Shown here: one piece after another, positions 6,627 to 61,628 of the stretch
Position numbering within the stretch: position 1 is the first letter of the stretch
Layout: every line of letters starts with the position of its first letter
Virus record (IMG/VR): IMGVR_UViG_3300042691_041259
Coordinates: 96,001 to 160,000 of that record
Origin: a virus
Lineage: Duplodnaviria > Caudoviricetes
Reading direction: 5' to 3' (one strand)
DNA length: 64,000 bases
Translations under genes and position numbers: made by a program
The notes under the pieces: generated by a model
Told to the model about the DNA's origin: nothing
The model's input: only the letters and a program-made list of their open reading frames with translations
Database searches by the model: none

Positions 6627-6635
6627 CTATATATC
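6627..6635 (-). promoter_or_regulatory. Putative late promoter GATATATAG (a second element, CATAAATA, at 6619-6626)
   Basis: Lies just upstream of the 6610 start; the same motif recurs before many structural genes; resembles the T4 late consensus TATAAATA. Confidence 0.5.
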
Positions 6636-13254: not shown

Positions 13255-13263
13255 CTATATATC
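13255..13263 (-). promoter_or_regulatory. Putative late promoter GATATATAG
   Basis: 16 nt upstream of the 13239 start; identical to the copies at 6627, 38482 and 56746. Confidence 0.5.
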
Positions 13264-53722: not shown

Positions 53723-54070
53723 TTATTCAAAATCGGGCAAAAAGCCAAGACTATTCATACAGTCTTGATTAAAGTATGCCTGTTGTGATCTTGGATATTT
53801 GTTACTAAAAATAATTTTATCATCTTTAGCGACATCCAAAAAGTATACCCCTCCACCAATACCGGCTGTGATTGCCCATTCGGCGCCAGATCCACGTTCT
53901 TTTGCTACGTAAACATCCACTTGATCAAAGCGATTGTCATCGTCAAGCGTTTCTTCGCTTCTTTCCGCATCTCTGTCAAAGCTTATTCCACCAAGTCTTA
54001 ATTGTTTTTCAATATCAAAAGGTAAATGCGCTTCGCCAACAAACGCCTCAAACGTTTTTAAGTGCTTCAT
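53723..54070 (-). CDS. Small protein with a capsid-targeting-like leader
   Basis: MKHLKTFEAFVGEA; ATGA coupling to the amidoligase stop. Confidence 0.6.
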   Translation of the reverse strand: MKHLKTFEAFVGEAHLPFDIEKQLRLGGISFDRDAERSEETLDDDNRFDQVDVYVAKERGSGAEWAITAGIGGGVYFLDVAKDDKIIFSNKYPRSQQAYFNQDCMNSLGFLPDFE

Positions 54071-55470
54071 TTCTTTTCTTTCTTTTTATCTTTTTCCTTG
54101 GATTCATCCTTGTAACTACCTGGAGATTCTACGGGTTCTTTCTCTTCAACAATCATGGTTTCTTTAGAAACATTGGCAAGTTTTCCAATCTCCCCGTTAC
54201 GTATTACCCCTCTCACGACTTGGCAATTAATGATATTTGACTTGTTTTCAATAAAGCAATCATTACAAGCATTTTCAACATGTAATGGAGATTCCACTAT
54301 CTTTGAAAAGTCAACCGTGTTTCCTTTTGGAAATACGCTAAATCCAATACGGCTATTCTTAATTTTACAACCGTAAAAAGAACAACGATCCATAACACCT
54401 TCAAGTTCGCAATCAATTATTTCTAAATCGGTAAGCCTACAATTTTTTAATTTGGTGCTCTTTAATTGAAAACGACCAATTTCACTATCCAAATTAAACT
54501 CGCCTTTGGTCATACCGCCAGAAACAATAATTTCAAATAGTTTGTCTCTAAGATTGATCCAAACGCCTTCGAGTACATCATCATTGTCGTTCATATCTAA
54601 TGTTACCTTAATATCAGGGAACTCCTTTTTAAACGACGCATATTTTACAAAAGCTTGCGATATTTTATTTTGCTTTTCAATCATTTTCTTGAACTCTCGC
54701 ACTTCCGATGACGTGAAATCCATGAAATTAAGAACAGAATGCATATGCGTAATAAAGTAAGAAACCAGATCTAAAATCTTCTTGGTTTTCTTTTCATAAT
54801 CCGCGCCACCCATGTAACGATATTCCAAGTAGTTCTTTTCGAGTTTGAGGAAATTTACGCCATAATACTTTTCAAATGGAGTTTGGAAAGCATTTCTGCT
54901 GTAAACTGTGCTATCTTTATTGATAAAGAAGGCTGACTTATTTGGAAGAATTTCTTTAATGCTTCGAGCATAAACAGAATCTCTTCTCTTTGGAAAAACT
55001 GAGTACACGTTTTCTTCATCAAAAGAAAGAATGAACTTTAGAACATTCATATTTTTGATGTCAAATATGGTTGGAAGCTGAACATCGTCAATAGAAATGT
55101 TGACGTGAATGGAGCATCTTTCCGTGGTGTACCCATTATTGCTAATCCATTCCAGCACTTTAATAATGACATTCCGGGCTTCTGTATATTTCATTGGCCC
55201 AGTCACTAATTCGCACATAGTCTTTCCACCGGAATAGTCCGGTTCGAGCTTAAAAATCTCATCGGTTGGTGCTACTGGAGAGTGGTACAGCGGTTTAGGT
55301 TCTTTAATATCGGAAAGGGCCATTGGAACAACAACCCGTTTCCCGATATATTTTGATATTGACCGCGCTGTCTCTAAATGGCCTTTCAAATTAGAATAGA
55401 ATTCAAATTCTATCCCAATCTTTCCTGCCTCTAAAATTTCTGCAGGGCTATAGTTCTTCTTAATTTTCAT
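54067..55470 (-). CDS. Putative amidoligase (COOH-NH2 ligase, glutamine-synthetase-like fold) with C-terminal beta-helix-like repeats
   Basis: GIEFEF, EPDYS, ELVTGP, CSIHVN, KYYGVN, EYRYMGG; C-terminal ~5-residue repeats (LKNCR, IIDCE, IKNSR, IINCQ). Confidence 0.75.
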   Translation of the reverse strand: MKIKKNYSPAEILEAGKIGIEFEFYSNLKGHLETARSISKYIGKRVVVPMALSDIKEPKPLYHSPVAPTDEIFKLEPDYSGGKTMCELVTGPMKYTEARNVIIKVLEWISNNGYTTERCSIHVNISIDDVQLPTIFDIKNMNVLKFILSFDEENVYSVFPKRRDSVYARSIKEILPNKSAFFINKDSTVYSRNAFQTPFEKYYGVNFLKLEKNYLEYRYMGGADYEKKTKKILDLVSYFITHMHSVLNFMDFTSSEVREFKKMIEKQNKISQAFVKYASFKKEFPDIKVTLDMNDNDDVLEGVWINLRDKLFEIIVSGGMTKGEFNLDSEIGRFQLKSTKLKNCRLTDLEIIDCELEGVMDRCSFYGCKIKNSRIGFSVFPKGNTVDFSKIVESPLHVENACNDCFIENKSNIINCQVVRGVIRNGEIGKLANVSKETMIVEEKEPVESPGSYKDESKEKDKKKEKK

Positions 55471-55511: not shown

Positions 55512-56726
55512 TTATTCTTCGTTAGGGATTGTCAAAAAGATTTTATCATTGTGTACGCGTTCAACGGACACCATTACGTGGTCACCTACCGCGTAATTCT
55601 TCTTTTTGATTTTTATTTCTTTCTTGGAAATTAAGCCTACAATATCTTTCTGCAGCTTTACCAAAGTACCAAACGGCTGAATTGAAACAACTTCGCCACC
55701 TGTGATCACTCCTAAATGTTTTTCTTTGAACTCTTCAAGCTCTTTCATACGAATGCTTGGATCTTCATCGGTAAGAATAATTTTCTTATCTGGCGTAATT
55801 TCTTTAATCCAGAATTGAACGGTATTTCCTGCCGAAAATACGCCACTCTTAAAGTCTTCCCGCATTTCAGGAGTCATTTTACTTGTATGTATAAGACCTG
55901 TGAAGATCTCATTAAATTCTACAAATACACCAAACTTGGCAGTACCAGTGACTGTTCCTGTATATTTTTCTTCCAGGCTAAGGCTTTCAATTTTTGAAGG
56001 CAATACGTGTGAAAGATATTTTTTGTGGCTGAATACAAATGTTCCAGCGTCTCTGAGGTAATCTTCCACCATTACGTATATTTCTTTGCCCAGCATTGAA
56101 TCAAAGTCTCTTACAATATTAGCCGCTGCCAAAGAACCAGGTAAGAAACCTTCTATACCGGCAACGTTAACCAGGAATCCACCACCATTTCTGCTGATGA
56201 TTTTTGCGGTGTACGCGCTGGTAGGCTTTTCAATTTGTTGGAAGAACTCAGAACGAATGCTTTGAGAATGTCCTTTGCTTAGAGAAGCTATTGTATAAGG
56301 CTTTATGGTTTCAATTACCACTTTTTTGCCTTCAGCTCCAATAAATCCTGAAAAAGCGCCCTCGGTGTTTTTCATCCAGTCTACAAAAGACTCTTGATTC
56401 ATACCAACAGTCTTAAAGTATGGCTTTTCTTTTTCCAATTGAATCACAGCGTCAATCATACCTGAAAGGGTAACTACCATTTCAGTGTCATTGATACTAA
56501 CCACGGAAGTGATTGCGTGATATTCCCCAACTTTTGGTTCTTTTACGCCGCCAGCTGTGGATTTTTCATAGCGGAGATACATTTCTTCTGCACCGCTGTC
56601 ATGTCTCCAAATCTTTACTCCATATTTCTTTAGGAGAACGGGATTTGGGATTCTTCTTGCTTGACGGTCTTCTGCTTCAAAAGCCGCCCAGTCAAAGTCG
56701 AGTGTTGTGTTATTTTTGATTTGCAT
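55512..56726 (-). CDS. Ribosomal protein bS1 homologue (about four S1 domains)
   Basis: GGFLVNVAGIEGFLPGS..VRDFD, GTVTGTAKFGVFVEF..GLIHTS and GEVVSIQPFGTLV are S1 repeats; N-terminal DFDWAAFE resembles Bacteroidota RpsA as recalled. Confidence 0.8.
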   Translation of the reverse strand: MQIKNNTTLDFDWAAFEAEDRQARRIPNPVLLKKYGVKIWRHDSGAEEMYLRYEKSTAGGVKEPKVGEYHAITSVVSINDTEMVVTLSGMIDAVIQLEKEKPYFKTVGMNQESFVDWMKNTEGAFSGFIGAEGKKVVIETIKPYTIASLSKGHSQSIRSEFFQQIEKPTSAYTAKIISRNGGGFLVNVAGIEGFLPGSLAAANIVRDFDSMLGKEIYVMVEDYLRDAGTFVFSHKKYLSHVLPSKIESLSLEEKYTGTVTGTAKFGVFVEFNEIFTGLIHTSKMTPEMREDFKSGVFSAGNTVQFWIKEITPDKKIILTDEDPSIRMKELEEFKEKHLGVITGGEVVSIQPFGTLVKLQKDIVGLISKKEIKIKKKNYAVGDHVMVSVERVHNDKIFLTIPNEE

Positions 56727-56745
56727 ATTTATAGGTTTTCTATGT

Positions 56746-56754
56746 CTATATATC
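56746..56754 (-). promoter_or_regulatory. Putative late promoter GATATATAG (an exact T4 TATAAATA also overlaps the start, 56726-56733)
   Basis: 20 nt upstream of the bS1-like start. Confidence 0.5.
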
Positions 56755-56756
56755 TT

Positions 56757-59700
56757 TTACGGAATTGCTTGATAGCCTGTAGCCGCCAAGTATGTGGAAC
56801 CAAGTCCTGACTTTCTTTGAGCTGTTGCTACTAATTGGTCTAGCCAAATTACAAAAGGAACATTCTTATCGCTTAGGCCTTCCCAAGTTGGGAGTTTTTC
56901 GAGAGGCTTAGTCGGATGTAATTTTGTAAAGGCAAGCCTTGCCGGAGAAAAACTGCAGGCTAGTAGTTTTACAATCAATGGCGTATTGTTAAAAAGCAGA
57001 GGCAGCACTGAATTTAGCAAAGGCTCTAAAATAGGCTTAAACAGCTCCCAACTTACATCGTAAAAAGGCCCGTCCTTTCCAGGAAGACTGAGTTTTGGCG
57101 GAAATTGGAAAAGCTCAATAATACTTAAAAACGGAAAGCTTCCTAACGCATTTATTGTGTTAATTAACGTAGAAACGCCGTCAAGCGCAGGATACACCGT
57201 TGATTCAAGAACTCCTCCTATAAAGCTTTTTATATCGCTACCTTTAATATCAGACAGACCAACGCCAAAGAGCGCTTTAACAATTAAAGAAACGGCAATT
57301 AGCTTCTGTACATTTTCTGAGGAAACGGCTTCATAAATTTTTGCCATGATAGTTGCTTTAATTGAATCAAAGGCTACTTGTGCGGCTTCTTTCATAAGAG
57401 TTTTAATAAGAGACCCGGGTATCACAATTTGAGAAGGTAATCCAATCTTTCCTGGAAGTGGAACTTTAAACTTAAAAGGTATTTGCTTAACCATGTCAAT
57501 AGTCTGCTTAAGCATATTGTAGCTTTCTGGATCGGGTATCACAAGTTCTGGAACCGCATCAAGCAAACCATTGATGGTGTTGTAAAACAATCTCTCCGCC
57601 GAAGGAAGATTTCCGCTAAGATCTAGTTCAAAAGACACTAGGTTTGCTATTTGTTCAAGCGGCAATGCATCAATAATAGAAGGCGCCGCTTTGAAAGCGC
57701 CTATCAGTACATATATGTATGGCGGAACTACCGGTAGCTGAATGTTTGTGTAACATGGAAATGGAAGAACCAGCGCGTCCACTGTTTTTGAGACAAACCC
57801 AAGAATTTCAGGGTTTATCTTTTTAGCAGCTTCCTCTAAAGGTTTCTTTATCAGCTTTTTAATTATTTTTGCTCGCTCTCGCACTTTTTCATCTAGAGAA
57901 GTATCAAAAGACAGCCTAGATTCTAATTCGTCAATTTCTGCATCGATTTCTCTAAAAAATCTTTTCACATTAGGGGTATCAACTTGCTGCAGTACCTGCT
58001 CACGAAGCTTTTTCTTTATATTGATAGTAGGTATCCCAATTCCTAGAGCTTTAAGCAGCTCGCTTTGTAACTCCGCCGGTGCTGAAGTGACTGTATCAAT
58101 TGCCTTATTGAGATTGTCCATAATTTCTCCTGGCCCTAAAGTTTTTAGCAACAACTTTTTATCATCTTTAGGAAATTTAATAGAATTTACTTTAATGCCA
58201 TCTATAGCTTTTACCGCACCAGCAAACACTTCTGTTAAAGCCGCTTCAATTTCTGCAGGATTTGGCGGTAGGCCTTCAAAAGCTTCCCTGATTTGTTGTC
58301 TCTTAGCACGTGCTGCCGCAGAATTGCCACCTATTGAAGGCGGATCCGGTATTTCCAATTGCGAATAAGAAGACTTAATCTTCTCTTTAAGCTTATCAAT
58401 GATATTTTTTCCGCTGTCTGGATTTCCAACATCGTTATTAGCATTGCCTACTAATAGTTTTCCTAATGGCGAAGACAGATTGATCTTGACTCCGCCTGGA
58501 GGCAACAATATGTCTAATAAAGACTTTTCTTCAAGTGGATTGACTCCAGCCACCGTAGGGTGTGGTATTGAACATGGTCCTCGAGATGTCAACATAAATG
58601 TTGCATCCCCCTTTTCATCAATAAACATAATAAACGGAGCTGGAATAAATCCAGCAAGAGCAATCCAAATAACAATTGTTCCTAAAGGAGTACTGATAGT
58701 TATGATATGTTTCCAAAGAAGAGGCAGAGGTATGCTAATTAAAGGATCGGGTATCCCAAGAGCAAGCGTAGGTATGGCCGGTATTGGAGGTATTGGAAAT
58801 TGAATAGCCACTGGATAGTATCGAAAAAGCCTGACACTAAAATTGGTAGGATCCAATTCAGGTACCGGTAGCACACTTACCTTTTGCATTATTTTTGTGT
58901 ACTCTTTCCAGTAACAGTTCTTAATAAATGTAGGACATCGGCCATCAGATGGTCTTTGACCTACTGGATCTGAACCCAATTTATCCTTGCATTCTTTCTC
59001 TAAATTTGTAGAGTCACCTCCATCAACAGGGGCTCCAAGTTTTTTAGCTGTATTTTCAATGTTTGCTTGATTCTCTTCAACACAAATTTGACAGCTTTCC
59101 ATTAAAGCATCTAGTGAAGCCAGTTCTTCTTGCAATTTTTCGTAATATGTGCGGGCAACAAATGATTTTCTAGAAAAATCGTCTATATTACTAATTGAAT
59201 ACAGTTGGATCAGATCGTCTAAAAACCCGCGGTTTTCAATGTTATCAAAGAAAACAAGCGCTGCTTCCCTTTTTGCTGCTTGGTCAATCGGGCCATTGAT
59301 AAAATTTGCATACGCAGCAGAGTTTTCAATGTCTTGAGCTTTTTGGATAACCTTTTCACGAGTTTTTTTATCTAGGTTTTCTAAAAAATCTTGTGCTATC
59401 TCATCATTACTTTTCAAATCTTGAGAGGCTGCCGGAACCTGTATTATGACTTCCTCTTCCAGACCATTTTTTACCACTTTATTAACTGTTTCGCCTACAG
59501 GCTCTCCTCTATCATTAAACTGTGGCTTTGGCTGTGTGTAGCCTTGCTCTTGATATGTAAAGAAGTAGTCTATTCTTTTTGCTGAGAAGAACGGCTTCCA
59601 TATGCCAACTTCAAAAAGACCTTGCCTATCTTTTACTAGGTTTTCTCCAGAATACTCTGGAACGTCAATGGGTATGATGTAATTCACTAGCGGTTCAGAA

Positions 59701-61628
59701 ATGCCTGTGATTGTGTTAAGCTTTCCGCCTAATGATGTCCCCGTTCCTGATATGTATGACGGATTCCAGACTGTACTAGGTGTATTGATAGACTCTTGCC
59801 AAAGCTCTTGACAGCGCCCTCTAACATCATAATAAGAATCCGTTTCCGCGGTTATTTTAAGAATTCCCGGAGCTTTAATGCTCCATTGATTAAATTGCGT
59901 AGGTAAGTACCCTACCAAATTACTCAGTGGATTTGTGTCTATGTTTAGCCCCTGGCGAATTTGCTGGAGGTTTCCATTTGCAATATTGTTAAGTTCATCT
60001 TTAAATCCATTAAATTGGGTTTCAACCGCAATTAGATTTTCATTTTCATCATTGATTGTTAATGTATAAATTCCTTGTCCTTCATAATTAAGATAAGTCA
60101 AAGCTTCCACCCCGCTAAGAAAATCTTCTGAATTAGTGTACACTCCATTTGTTAGGGATGAGTAATCAGTAGACTCTGCTATAACAGCGTCGCGATCTCT
60201 AATAATCGCAATCAATTGATTATTGAAAAAATCTATGTAATCTTTTAGCCTATCAAAATACTGGATTGTTATCTTGTGTAAAATTGCATGCGAGTAGAAC
60301 GCATACCATTTATTACTTGCGTCTCCTTTCTGCGCTCCACATTTTTGCATCTGCTGAGAAAAAGCATCAATTTCAGAAAGAACTTCTTGAACTTTATTGA
60401 GCTCCCCTTCCTGTGAAGGAATTTCTACATTTGGATAATCCACTGCTACCGATCCATCTTCACCCACACTCGCAAACCCTGATATGTCGGCTGCTATTCC
60501 AGCAGCTCCAGCAGCCCCACTTTCATCACCATCTGTAGGAACTTTGCAAGTCTCGTCATGAATTTTTTGAATCTCTTCCTCCCTATACGCAGATGGCTTA
60601 GGTGTTACATCCGCACATTTATTGATAACCTTTCCTATTTGTGATGGATACGTATCCTCAGGGTCCGGCAAGCCTATTTGTGTTGTGACATTACTTACAG
60701 GGTCAGACAATCCTGCTTCTTGTGCTGCACCATTGTTTACAAGGTCAGGCAATCCTATTATGGATTGAACATTTAATTCTTTTATTTGCTTTTCATTTTC
60801 AAAAAAAGTTTGAGCCTCTTTTTCAATATCAACGTCCTTTACTAAGTTTACTCCAAGTATTTTAGTCTGCTCAAAAAATTCAACTTTGTCCTTTGCATTT
60901 TTCAGAGCATTTTTTACAGATGGCACTCCTAAAAATTGCTCTTTTGCGAGATTTTGCAGCTCTTCAAGTTCTTCTGGCCCAGATTCCGATAAGAGTTTTT
61001 TGTATGTTACACCTGCCAAATTTTGCAAAGCCTCTTCAGCAGAACCAAATTTTGCATCGGGTGCCCATGCAAATGTTCCAATTCCTATTTTGAATCTTAC
61101 GCCAAGCTCAATTGGACCAAACTTAAAACCTAGCACAGCATCAATAGTAGGTATTGTGATAGCTATTTTTAACTTTGAAAACGCGTTTAAATCAATTCCA
61201 CTCAAATCCATTACCTTTGTAATATCAATGTTTGGATTTTCTGTGATTTCAGTAATTTTGAATTTGCCAACCTTCTTTTCCGGATCCGTGATTTTTACAT
61301 CATCAAAATTGACATCGCCATCGGGAAGGCTAAAAAGCGTTTCCACTAATTTTGTAAGCTGCGACATTTTTCCAAGAGGGTCAACTTTCCCAATAAATCG
61401 CTCTTCAATAGGAATTTCGGGATACTCGTTGTAGTCGCTGGATGTTACTGTTTGACTGAACAGATTTTCTATTTCTTTGGCTTTTTTGATGACCGCTTGT
61501 TTTGGAGCAAGCACGCCATCAGGCACGGCTTCGTTTAGAATCTTGTTTATTTCGTCAAGAAGCTCTTTTGCTTCTTTTGATTTTGATTCACAACATGTAC
61601 AATTGATACCGTGAATTTCACTCTTCAT
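56757..61628 (-). CDS. Large hypothetical protein after the spike gene; probably baseplate hub associated
   Basis: 1623 aa; TAATG coupling to gp5; acidic N-terminal half, scattered Cys, Pro-rich hydrophobic segments in the C-terminal half. Confidence 0.5.
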   Translation of the reverse strand: MKSEIHGINCTCCESKSKEAKELLDEINKILNEAVPDGVLAPKQAVIKKAKEIENLFSQTVTSSDYNEYPEIPIEERFIGKVDPLGKMSQLTKLVETLFSLPDGDVNFDDVKITDPEKKVGKFKITEITENPNIDITKVMDLSGIDLNAFSKLKIAITIPTIDAVLGFKFGPIELGVRFKIGIGTFAWAPDAKFGSAEEALQNLAGVTYKKLLSESGPEELEELQNLAKEQFLGVPSVKNALKNAKDKVEFFEQTKILGVNLVKDVDIEKEAQTFFENEKQIKELNVQSIIGLPDLVNNGAAQEAGLSDPVSNVTTQIGLPDPEDTYPSQIGKVINKCADVTPKPSAYREEEIQKIHDETCKVPTDGDESGAAGAAGIAADISGFASVGEDGSVAVDYPNVEIPSQEGELNKVQEVLSEIDAFSQQMQKCGAQKGDASNKWYAFYSHAILHKITIQYFDRLKDYIDFFNNQLIAIIRDRDAVIAESTDYSSLTNGVYTNSEDFLSGVEALTYLNYEGQGIYTLTINDENENLIAVETQFNGFKDELNNIANGNLQQIRQGLNIDTNPLSNLVGYLPTQFNQWSIKAPGILKITAETDSYYDVRGRCQELWQESINTPSTVWNPSYISGTGTSLGGKLNTITGISEPLVNYIIPIDVPEYSGENLVKDRQGLFEVGIWKPFFSAKRIDYFFTYQEQGYTQPKPQFNDRGEPVGETVNKVVKNGLEEEVIIQVPAASQDLKSNDEIAQDFLENLDKKTREKVIQKAQDIENSAAYANFINGPIDQAAKREAALVFFDNIENRGFLDDLIQLYSISNIDDFSRKSFVARTYYEKLQEELASLDALMESCQICVEENQANIENTAKKLGAPVDGGDSTNLEKECKDKLGSDPVGQRPSDGRCPTFIKNCYWKEYTKIMQKVSVLPVPELDPTNFSVRLFRYYPVAIQFPIPPIPAIPTLALGIPDPLISIPLPLLWKHIITISTPLGTIVIWIALAGFIPAPFIMFIDEKGDATFMLTSRGPCSIPHPTVAGVNPLEEKSLLDILLPPGGVKINLSSPLGKLLVGNANNDVGNPDSGKNIIDKLKEKIKSSYSQLEIPDPPSIGGNSAAARAKRQQIREAFEGLPPNPAEIEAALTEVFAGAVKAIDGIKVNSIKFPKDDKKLLLKTLGPGEIMDNLNKAIDTVTSAPAELQSELLKALGIGIPTINIKKKLREQVLQQVDTPNVKRFFREIDAEIDELESRLSFDTSLDEKVRERAKIIKKLIKKPLEEAAKKINPEILGFVSKTVDALVLPFPCYTNIQLPVVPPYIYVLIGAFKAAPSIIDALPLEQIANLVSFELDLSGNLPSAERLFYNTINGLLDAVPELVIPDPESYNMLKQTIDMVKQIPFKFKVPLPGKIGLPSQIVIPGSLIKTLMKEAAQVAFDSIKATIMAKIYEAVSSENVQKLIAVSLIVKALFGVGLSDIKGSDIKSFIGGVLESTVYPALDGVSTLINTINALGSFPFLSIIELFQFPPKLSLPGKDGPFYDVSWELFKPILEPLLNSVLPLLFNNTPLIVKLLACSFSPARLAFTKLHPTKPLEKLPTWEGLSDKNVPFVIWLDQLVATAQRKSGLGSTYLAATGYQAIP

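Follow-up and report, generated by a model that had tools for sequence, protein, structure and literature searches.

The S1 gene and its setting

The window, by which we mean the whole stretch of 64,000 nucleotides that was analysed, corresponds to bases 96001-160000 of a 202,505-bp IMG/VR virus record whose completeness is estimated at 66%. The carrier is a large, T4-like freshwater phage. Within a long run of minus-strand genes lies a complete open reading frame for a 404-aa homologue of ribosomal protein S1, the only S1-domain gene in the 202,505-bp record and the only ribosomal-type gene that was found there. Its start codon is correctly called, since relatives have the same N-terminus. 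The adjacent genes match T4-type virion families: downstream of S1 lie genes for a head-tail adaptor/gp13-like neck protein, a gp25-like protein and two baseplate wedge proteins, and upstream lies that for a baseplate hub protein. The S1 protein itself had no family match in PHROGs. The features of the gene and its leader are as follows.

55512..56726, minus strand: complete open reading frame of the phage S1 homologue, 404 aa plus stop (open-reading-frame list, translation, Pfam S1)
56532..56726, minus strand: N-terminal helical segment, residues 1-65, with helices 13-23, 29-35 and 46-55 (AlphaFold2)
56676..56699, minus strand: DFDWAAFE, residues 10-17, putative uS2-docking helix motif of Bacteroidota type (alignment to Barnesiella NFDWDAFE)
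56229..56531, minus strand: OB domain 1 and linker helix, residues 66-166 (AlphaFold2 secondary structure)
56328-56438, minus strand: three-helix insertion in domain 1, residues ~97-133 (helices 101-107, 111-120 and 124-129)
56022..56219, minus strand: OB domain 2, residues 170-235, with the signature GGGF...GFLPGS (profile alignment to E. coli bS1 97-239)
55767..55979, minus strand: OB domain 3, residues 250-320, a canonical RNA-binding S1 domain (best Pfam S1 stretch, 252-318)
55527..55715, minus strand: OB domain 4, residues 338-400 (model strands 341-399)
56746..56754, minus strand: promoter-like box GATATATAG, 19 nt upstream of the S1 ATG (window and genome counts)
56726..56733, minus strand: TATAAATA, identical to the T4 late-promoter consensus (gp55-dependent), at a start-codon distance of -4 (sequence)

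Two late-promoter-like boxes upstream of the gene had been noticed in the first-pass annotation, of which one stood. The box GATATATAG, placed 19 nt before the ATG, is a recurrent motif: 0.58 copies are expected in the window and 4 are present, each of them on the minus (coding) strand. Across the genome the coding strand holds 22 occurrences of its core ATATATAG and the other strand 4, and 19 of the 22 sit 5-70 nt upstream of a gene start. The genes behind it are mostly virion genes, including those for the tail sheath, a head-closure homologue, a tail protein and several very large proteins; it also precedes small proteins with MK-x-F-x-E-F-L-N-E leaders, as well as ribonucleotide reductase and a homing endonuclease. 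The variant GATAAATA is found before topoisomerase II and the clamp loader too, and the related [GT]ATAAATA stands before the portal and amidoligase-like genes and again before topoisomerase II and the clamp loader. The second box, TATAAATA, was rejected as a promoter of the S1 gene because it overlaps the A of the ATG and so cannot drive the S1 open reading frame; it is probably just part of the A/T-rich leader.

Late expression, which had also been proposed, is likely in view of the recurrent GATATATAG motif and of a gp55-like late sigma factor encoded in the genome (phrog_234, E 1.9e-13), even though the motif also precedes non-virion genes and the second box falls on the start codon. Weak evidence that the gene is transcribed at all comes from two metatranscriptome runs of one study, in which 25-28% of its 31-mers were present, a figure that gives word shares only and carries neither strand, level nor timing.

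Descent from ribosomal protein bS1

The phage protein is derived from bS1 and is not a generic S1-domain protein (PNPase, RNase R, GSP13, Rrp5). Instead of grouping with non-ribosomal S1-domain proteins, the contrary outcome named in the first-pass annotation, it had bS1 as its best match in NCBIfam, in the PDB and in Foldseek: the eleven best NCBIfam matches were all bS1 equivalog models, the best PDB sequence matches were collinear with bS1 (phage residues 95-304 with E. coli 29-242, and phage 254-372 with E. coli 279-397), and the best Foldseek matches were to ribosome-bound E. coli bS1. The family profile gave the same collinear bS1 picture against PDB sequences. The first 95 residues on their own found a chance match only among PDB sequences (E 0.41).

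The correspondence can be followed domain by domain. Against a 597-aa bS1 reference labelled "Bacteriophage sp.", which an exact look-up traced to Barnesiella intestinihominis bS1, hhalign aligned the family profile with a probability of 97.8% and at ~27% identity, matching phage residues 5-391 collinearly to bS1 residues 6-360, a span that takes in the N-terminal motif and domains 1-4. The two proteins share the F-D-W-x-x-F-E helix motif, the order of domains 1-4, the GGF...FLPGS signature of domain 2 and a canonical RNA-binding domain 3, whereas the phage protein has no domains 5-6 and no C-terminal tail, has a longer N-terminus and a helical insert in domain 1, and has replaced a loop lysine. 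It stops after domain 4, as the hhalign alignment does at residue 360 of the 597 of bS1.

An AlphaFold2 model of the phage protein built on 30 relatives (mean pLDDT 79.7) contains four OB domains, at residues ~69-148, 172-233, 254-319 and 341-399, and Pfam S1 matches the protein in three stretches (76 bits against a cut-off of 22), in agreement with the initial count of about four S1 repeats. The N-terminal segment is longer than in bacterial bS1, by ~20 residues relative to Barnesiella in the hhalign alignment. Insertions in the first domain, likewise noted at first sight, are indeed present: the strands of OB domain 1 in the model span residues 69-78, 82-87, 91-96, 135-140 and 146-148, and three helices (101-129) lie between strands 3 and 4, where hhalign places extra residues relative to bacterial bS1.

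Invariance was scored across 30 relatives of 53-92% identity. In domain 2, Phe184, Phe194 and FLPGSLAA are invariant, and an FLPGS-like motif recurs in 96 of 121 distant full-length cluster representatives. The counterparts of Phe184 and Phe194 in E. coli bS1, Phe120 and Phe130, make up the mRNA pocket of OB2 (PMC10123108). No block of the family is better conserved than domain 3, in which K264, G266, F268, E270, F271, H280, S282 and K283 are all invariant. In domain 1 of E. coli bS1, Lys43 enters the zinc pocket of uS2 (PMC10123108); the loop lysine of the bacterial G-[LY]-K-S is absent from the phage protein, where it aligns with Met90, and members of the family have a hydrophobic residue (Met, Phe, Tyr or Leu) at this position.

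The N-terminal motif had been described as a Bacteroidota-like DFDW..FE segment and as a probable ribosome anchor. Its likeness to Bacteroidota bS1 is sound, in that DFDWAAFE matches NFDWDAFE at the start of Barnesiella bS1 and Trp13 is invariant in the 30 relatives; the motif overlaps the predicted helix 13-23 of the AlphaFold2 model. In E. coli the N-terminal helix of bS1 is its main anchor on uS2, through Phe5 and Phe9 (PMC10123108). When bS1 was sampled from 61 Bacteroidota genomes (from Parabacteroides sp. FAFU027 outward) and 25 Pseudomonadota genomes, [DN]F[DN]W preceded domain 1 in 15 of the 50 Bacteroidota sequences extracted, all 55-89% identical to Barnesiella bS1 (for example QFDWDSFESG, NFNWHNFQEG and DDFDWSIDKR), and was absent from the other 35. 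None of the 24 Pseudomonadota bS1 examined carried it; most have the E. coli-type [ES]-F-x-x-L-[FL]-E-E-S instead. Within the phage family, an F[DN]W-type motif is found in 42 of the 121 distant representatives, often as FDW-x-x-YEDG-[WY]-NG, which is also the form seen in Lak phages, and in about two thirds the N-terminus as called shows no F[DN]W motif, so that docking may not be universal or start codons may have been miscalled. At the level of sequence, then, a putative uS2-docking anchor of the Bacteroidales/Bacteroidota type is present. A complex prediction of Flavobacterium johnsoniae uS2 (RS2_FLAJ1) with phage residues 1-170, run without controls, gave a median score of 0.25, the mark being 0.32, a result that counts neither for binding nor against it.

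The protein is far from its bacterial relatives. Its scores of 77-83 bits fall below all of the curated bS1 cut-offs of 368-918 bits (TIGR00717, 77.4 against 577; NF004952, 83.5 against 524; NF005208, 77.3 against 368). Since bS1 homology is combined with scores below the cut-offs and with a replaced lysine, we call it a diverged descendant lineage of bS1 and not an equivalog by NCBI criteria. Scores so far below the cut-offs, together with the long stem of the phage clade described below, mean that the function may have shifted.

One form that such a shift could take is an RNA chaperone, or an mRNA-protecting or regulatory protein, that works off the ribosome and keeps only the RNA-binding chemistry of bS1. 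It would coat or unfold A/U-rich phage transcripts, shield them from host RNases, or repress or activate particular messages. The strong conservation of domain 3 with its canonical RNA-binding residues would fit such a protein, and what keeps the idea alive is the lost lysine contact (Lys43 in E. coli), the 30-residue insert in domain 1, the extreme divergence from bacterial bS1 and the many distant members with no recognisable anchor motif; the huge-phage study, too, allowed for a role 'on or off the ribosome' (PMC7162821). A free RNA binder, however, would not need Trp13, Phe184, Phe194 and FLPGS, ribosome-side elements that are strongly conserved, nor would its N-terminal motif be expected to track the Bacteroidota bS1 type specifically. 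We consider an off-ribosome role unlikely, though it deserves to be taken seriously. A ribosome-bound role is favoured, since conservation falls precisely on the anchor helix and the pocket of domain 2, with which bS1 works on the ribosome, and on domain 3, with which it works on RNA.

A phage-specific S1 family

That some phages encode S1 homologues is already known. A "possible rpS1" was reported in 2020 from huge phages and Lak megaphages (Al-Shayeb et al., 2020; PMC7162821), which bears out the statement in the first-pass annotation that bS1 homologues have been reported in some huge phages; the same study linked these genes to genomes with few Shine-Dalgarno sites and left it open whether they are true rpS1 (PMC7162821). 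Mizuno et al. deliberately left S1 out as ambiguous (PMC6375957), and IMG labels the present family as ribosomal protein S1. What is new here is the anchor motif of host type, the domain-by-domain correspondence with bS1, the grouping of the phage proteins in one deep clade and the gene's conserved place beside a neck gene. In the papers on phage S1 that we consulted we found no description of the anchor motif or of the gene order S1, amidoligase-like gene, gp13.

The family is large and predominantly viral. Relatives at E<=1e-5 number 633 among 90%-identity clusters, and an exhaustive search returned 128 clusters at 50% identity with E<1e-30. Among the 150 matches listed, nearly all are 340-430 aa long, with some shorter fragments and none of bacterial bS1 length, and viral sequences make up 90-100% of the nearest Atlas clusters. 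Of the deposited phages, Lak megaphages of Prevotella (Lak-A/B/C, 33% identity) and the LR7565xx huge phages matched best. A contig scan yielded one prokaryote-labelled record with the family, a 425-kb contig of a "Pacearchaeota" MAG; it has the same order of S1, amidoligase-like and gp13 genes and is evidently a misbinned huge phage.

In a quick IQ-TREE analysis of 103 sequences, with bacteria sampled from two phyla only, the phage proteins formed one clade (SH-aLRT 100) on a stem of 3.28 substitutions/site. This monophyletic clade includes the Lak copy, which carries SFNWTPYE but differs in having 369 aa and stopping after domain 3. The clade joins the Bacteroidota sequences at their unresolved base, and a tree constrained to unite the phage proteins with motif-bearing Bacteroidota bS1 improved on the free quick tree by 27 lnL units (p-AU 0.89). 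With two phyla and a very long branch, these sequence comparisons are compatible with a Bacteroidota origin of the phage clade, which they do not prove.

The S1 homologue of the jumbo cyanophage PhiMa05 makes an instructive comparison. It too is a phage-encoded bS1 homologue, but it groups with the bS1 of Vampirovibrio and lies beside five other ribosomal protein genes (PMC13157829), whereas the S1 studied here belongs to an old phage-specific lineage.

Relatives at 56%, 43% and 35% identity preserve the order S1, amidoligase-like gene (~460 aa), gp13 neck gene, and one of them also has T4-type prohead protease and gp23 capsid genes nearby. Retention of a place among neck and baseplate genes down to 35% identity is what one might expect of a protein that is packaged in the virion and acts at the start of the next infection, and packaging has been proposed for phage bS21 (PMC9723584). 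The N-terminus of S1 nevertheless lacks the MK-x-F-x-E-F-L-N-E leader of the small proteins behind the same promoter motif. A related suggestion is that the protein serves as a cofactor of another phage RNA enzyme, as host bS1 does for T4 RegB and Q-beta replicase (reviewed in PMC13157829); against this, no RegB homologue was found in the 202-kb record (~66% complete), in a search whose control was empty in every genome. The cofactor and packaged roles are less likely than action on the ribosome, and together we regard them as very improbable.

Position and sequence together also offer a means of sorting such genes. The anchor motif, combined with the signature of domain 2 and with the conservation of gene order, could serve as a criterion by which bS1-derived phage proteins are told from generic S1-domain proteins, and it is this problem, true rpS1 or generic S1-domain protein, that the huge-phage study left open (PMC7162821).

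A possible role in phage translation

The leaders of the phage genes are of a kind on which an S1 protein might act. In a simple call of 209 genes, in which tetramers were scored at -20 to -4, an SD-like core preceded 19, as against 19.9 +/- 3.7 for shuffled leaders; Shine-Dalgarno enrichment is thus absent. Among random coding-strand 17-mers, 16% hold an SD-like tetramer. Between -20 and -4 the leaders contain 49% A and 13% G, and the share of A rises to ~60% at -14 to -11. The characterisation of phage leaders as A/U-rich and SD-less made at first reading agrees with these figures, with the leaders A-rich and SD-like cores at the level of the shuffled control. Bacteroidia have leaders of this type, and their ribosomes sequester the anti-Shine-Dalgarno sequence (PMC7797042, PMC9976891); contacts between bS1 and mRNA are suspected to be most important in Bacteroidetes, which do without Shine-Dalgarno use (PMC7797042). 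One tRNA gene, for tRNA-Arg, was seen.

Ribosome docking with a preference for phage mRNA is plausible on these sequence features. The phage S1 would be made together with the virion proteins, and its N-terminal amphipathic helix would dock on uS2 where mRNA leaves the host 30S subunit, a site that host bS1 holds only weakly and reversibly. Once docked, the phage protein would have two OB domains on the ribosome side, the first remodelled by the insert and the second bearing the bS1 signature, while its RNA-binding OB domains 3-4 would capture A-rich phage leaders without Shine-Dalgarno enrichment. The outcome would be that phage translation is sustained or favoured on ribosomes unable to use Shine-Dalgarno pairing, host bS1 being supplemented or replaced during bulk synthesis of virion proteins. 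We judge the chances that this bS1 descendant, made with the virion proteins, docks on uS2, captures A-rich phage leaders and favours phage translation to be about even.

The loss of domains 5-6 invites another explanation. A protein that keeps the anchor and domains 1-2 could fill the uS2 site as a dominant-negative decoy and, without domains 5-6, fail to support initiation on host mRNAs, so that its main effect would be host shut-off. The gene, however, sits in the virion module, with which it seems to be expressed, and not among early takeover genes; the RNA-binding domains 3-4 are strongly conserved; and phage mRNAs use the same ribosomes and have the same type of leader without Shine-Dalgarno enrichment. 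A decoy is less likely than docking in support of phage translation, and we hold it to be distinctly improbable.

The late replacement of host bS1 proposed here has a close parallel in the bS21 of freshwater Bacteroidetes jumbo phages (Chen et al., 2022; PMC9723584). There, too, large freshwater phages, whose predicted hosts are Bacteroidetes, carry the gene for a ribosomal protein of initiation in their structural module, and the bS21 genes in structural modules are expressed late; late substitution into host ribosomes was proposed, which is the same idea as that put forward here for S1 (PMC9723584). The two systems differ in the protein concerned and in its history, the bS21 copies being close to host sequences whereas the S1 lineage has diverged deeply. 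The present 202-kb record (~66% complete) yielded no bS21.

Taken as a whole, the observations point tentatively to an old, phage-only, four-domain lineage of bS1 that has been inherited vertically beside neck genes in T4-like jumbo and mega phages of Bacteroidota, that has kept the uS2 anchor and remodelled domain 1, and that would act as a late swap of the mRNA-selecting subunit on ribosomes unable to use Shine-Dalgarno pairing. This full account is possible, and we think it somewhat more likely to be wrong in one or other of its parts than to hold throughout.

In Bacteroidia, where start sites are chosen without Shine-Dalgarno pairing, bS1 is the suspected selector. The widespread phage S1 amounts to a natural experiment on this point, in which a host-type anchor and the RNA-binding domains have been kept while the remainder has diverged strongly and domains 5-6 have been lost. 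If the proposal is true, the identity of the S1 bound to the 30S subunit would largely decide which leaders are chosen in Bacteroidia, and the host and phage proteins, as a natural pair of S1 variants, would make this directly testable.

The S1 gene and its neighbours

The 404-aa phage S1 protein ends in a short tail, L-T-I-P-N-E-x, that is nearly invariant across the family, and within it Pro401 and Glu403 are invariant. The tail and the genes flanking the S1 gene are located as follows.

Window 55515-55535, minus strand: C-terminal tail of the S1 protein, residues 398-404, marked by family conservation
Window 54067-55470, minus strand: amidoligase-like protein of 467 aa, with weak matches to Pfam Amidoligase_2 and phrog_7469
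Window 56757-61628, minus strand: open reading frame immediately upstream of S1, encoding a protein of 1623 aa

The Pfam Amidoligase_2 match of the 467-aa protein scores 18 bits, which is under the cut-off, and its match to phrog_7469 has an E-value of 3e-5. In relatives down to 35% identity, the amidoligase-like gene always has S1 on one side and the gp13 neck gene on the other. One relative carries it as two separate genes of 232 aa each. In the relative L007, on a contig of 318 kb, S1 and the amidoligase-like gene are separated by an inserted gene of 250 aa that matches NUMOD3 (homing endonuclease) weakly (L007 9226-9978). The 1623-aa protein on the other side had no match in PHROG, and its position is occupied by several smaller genes in relatives.

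Database records with questionable labels

A 425-kb contig from a 'Candidatus Pacearchaeota' MAG (JBBACR010000001.1) carries S1, amidoligase-like and gp13-like genes in the same order as the phage studied here; it almost certainly comes from a huge phage whose genome was binned with an archaeal MAG. In the 23-kb record MT835643.1 ('UNVERIFIED: Bacteriophage sp.'), the encoded bS1 is identical to that of Barnesiella intestinihominis and its neighbours are ordinary bacterial genes; the record is a piece of bacterial chromosome deposited as phage.

The late sigma factor and small proteins behind the promoter-like box

Full virus record 60439-60873 (G000:C1; L112 1240-1674), outside the window, minus strand: late sigma factor resembling gp55 (match to phrog_234, E 1.9e-13)
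Window 6627-6635 and 13255-13263, and elsewhere genome-wide: GATATATAG boxes before small-protein genes

The sigma factor gene adjoins those for head closure and the DNA end protector, and its reading frame overlaps the one upstream by about 80 nt. Several small proteins encoded after the promoter-like box (128, 66, 183 and 75 aa) begin with leaders resembling MK-[SH]-[FV]-x-x-F-x-x-F-[LM]-N-E. They resemble a family of proteins that carry a leader tag and are possibly targeted to the capsid.
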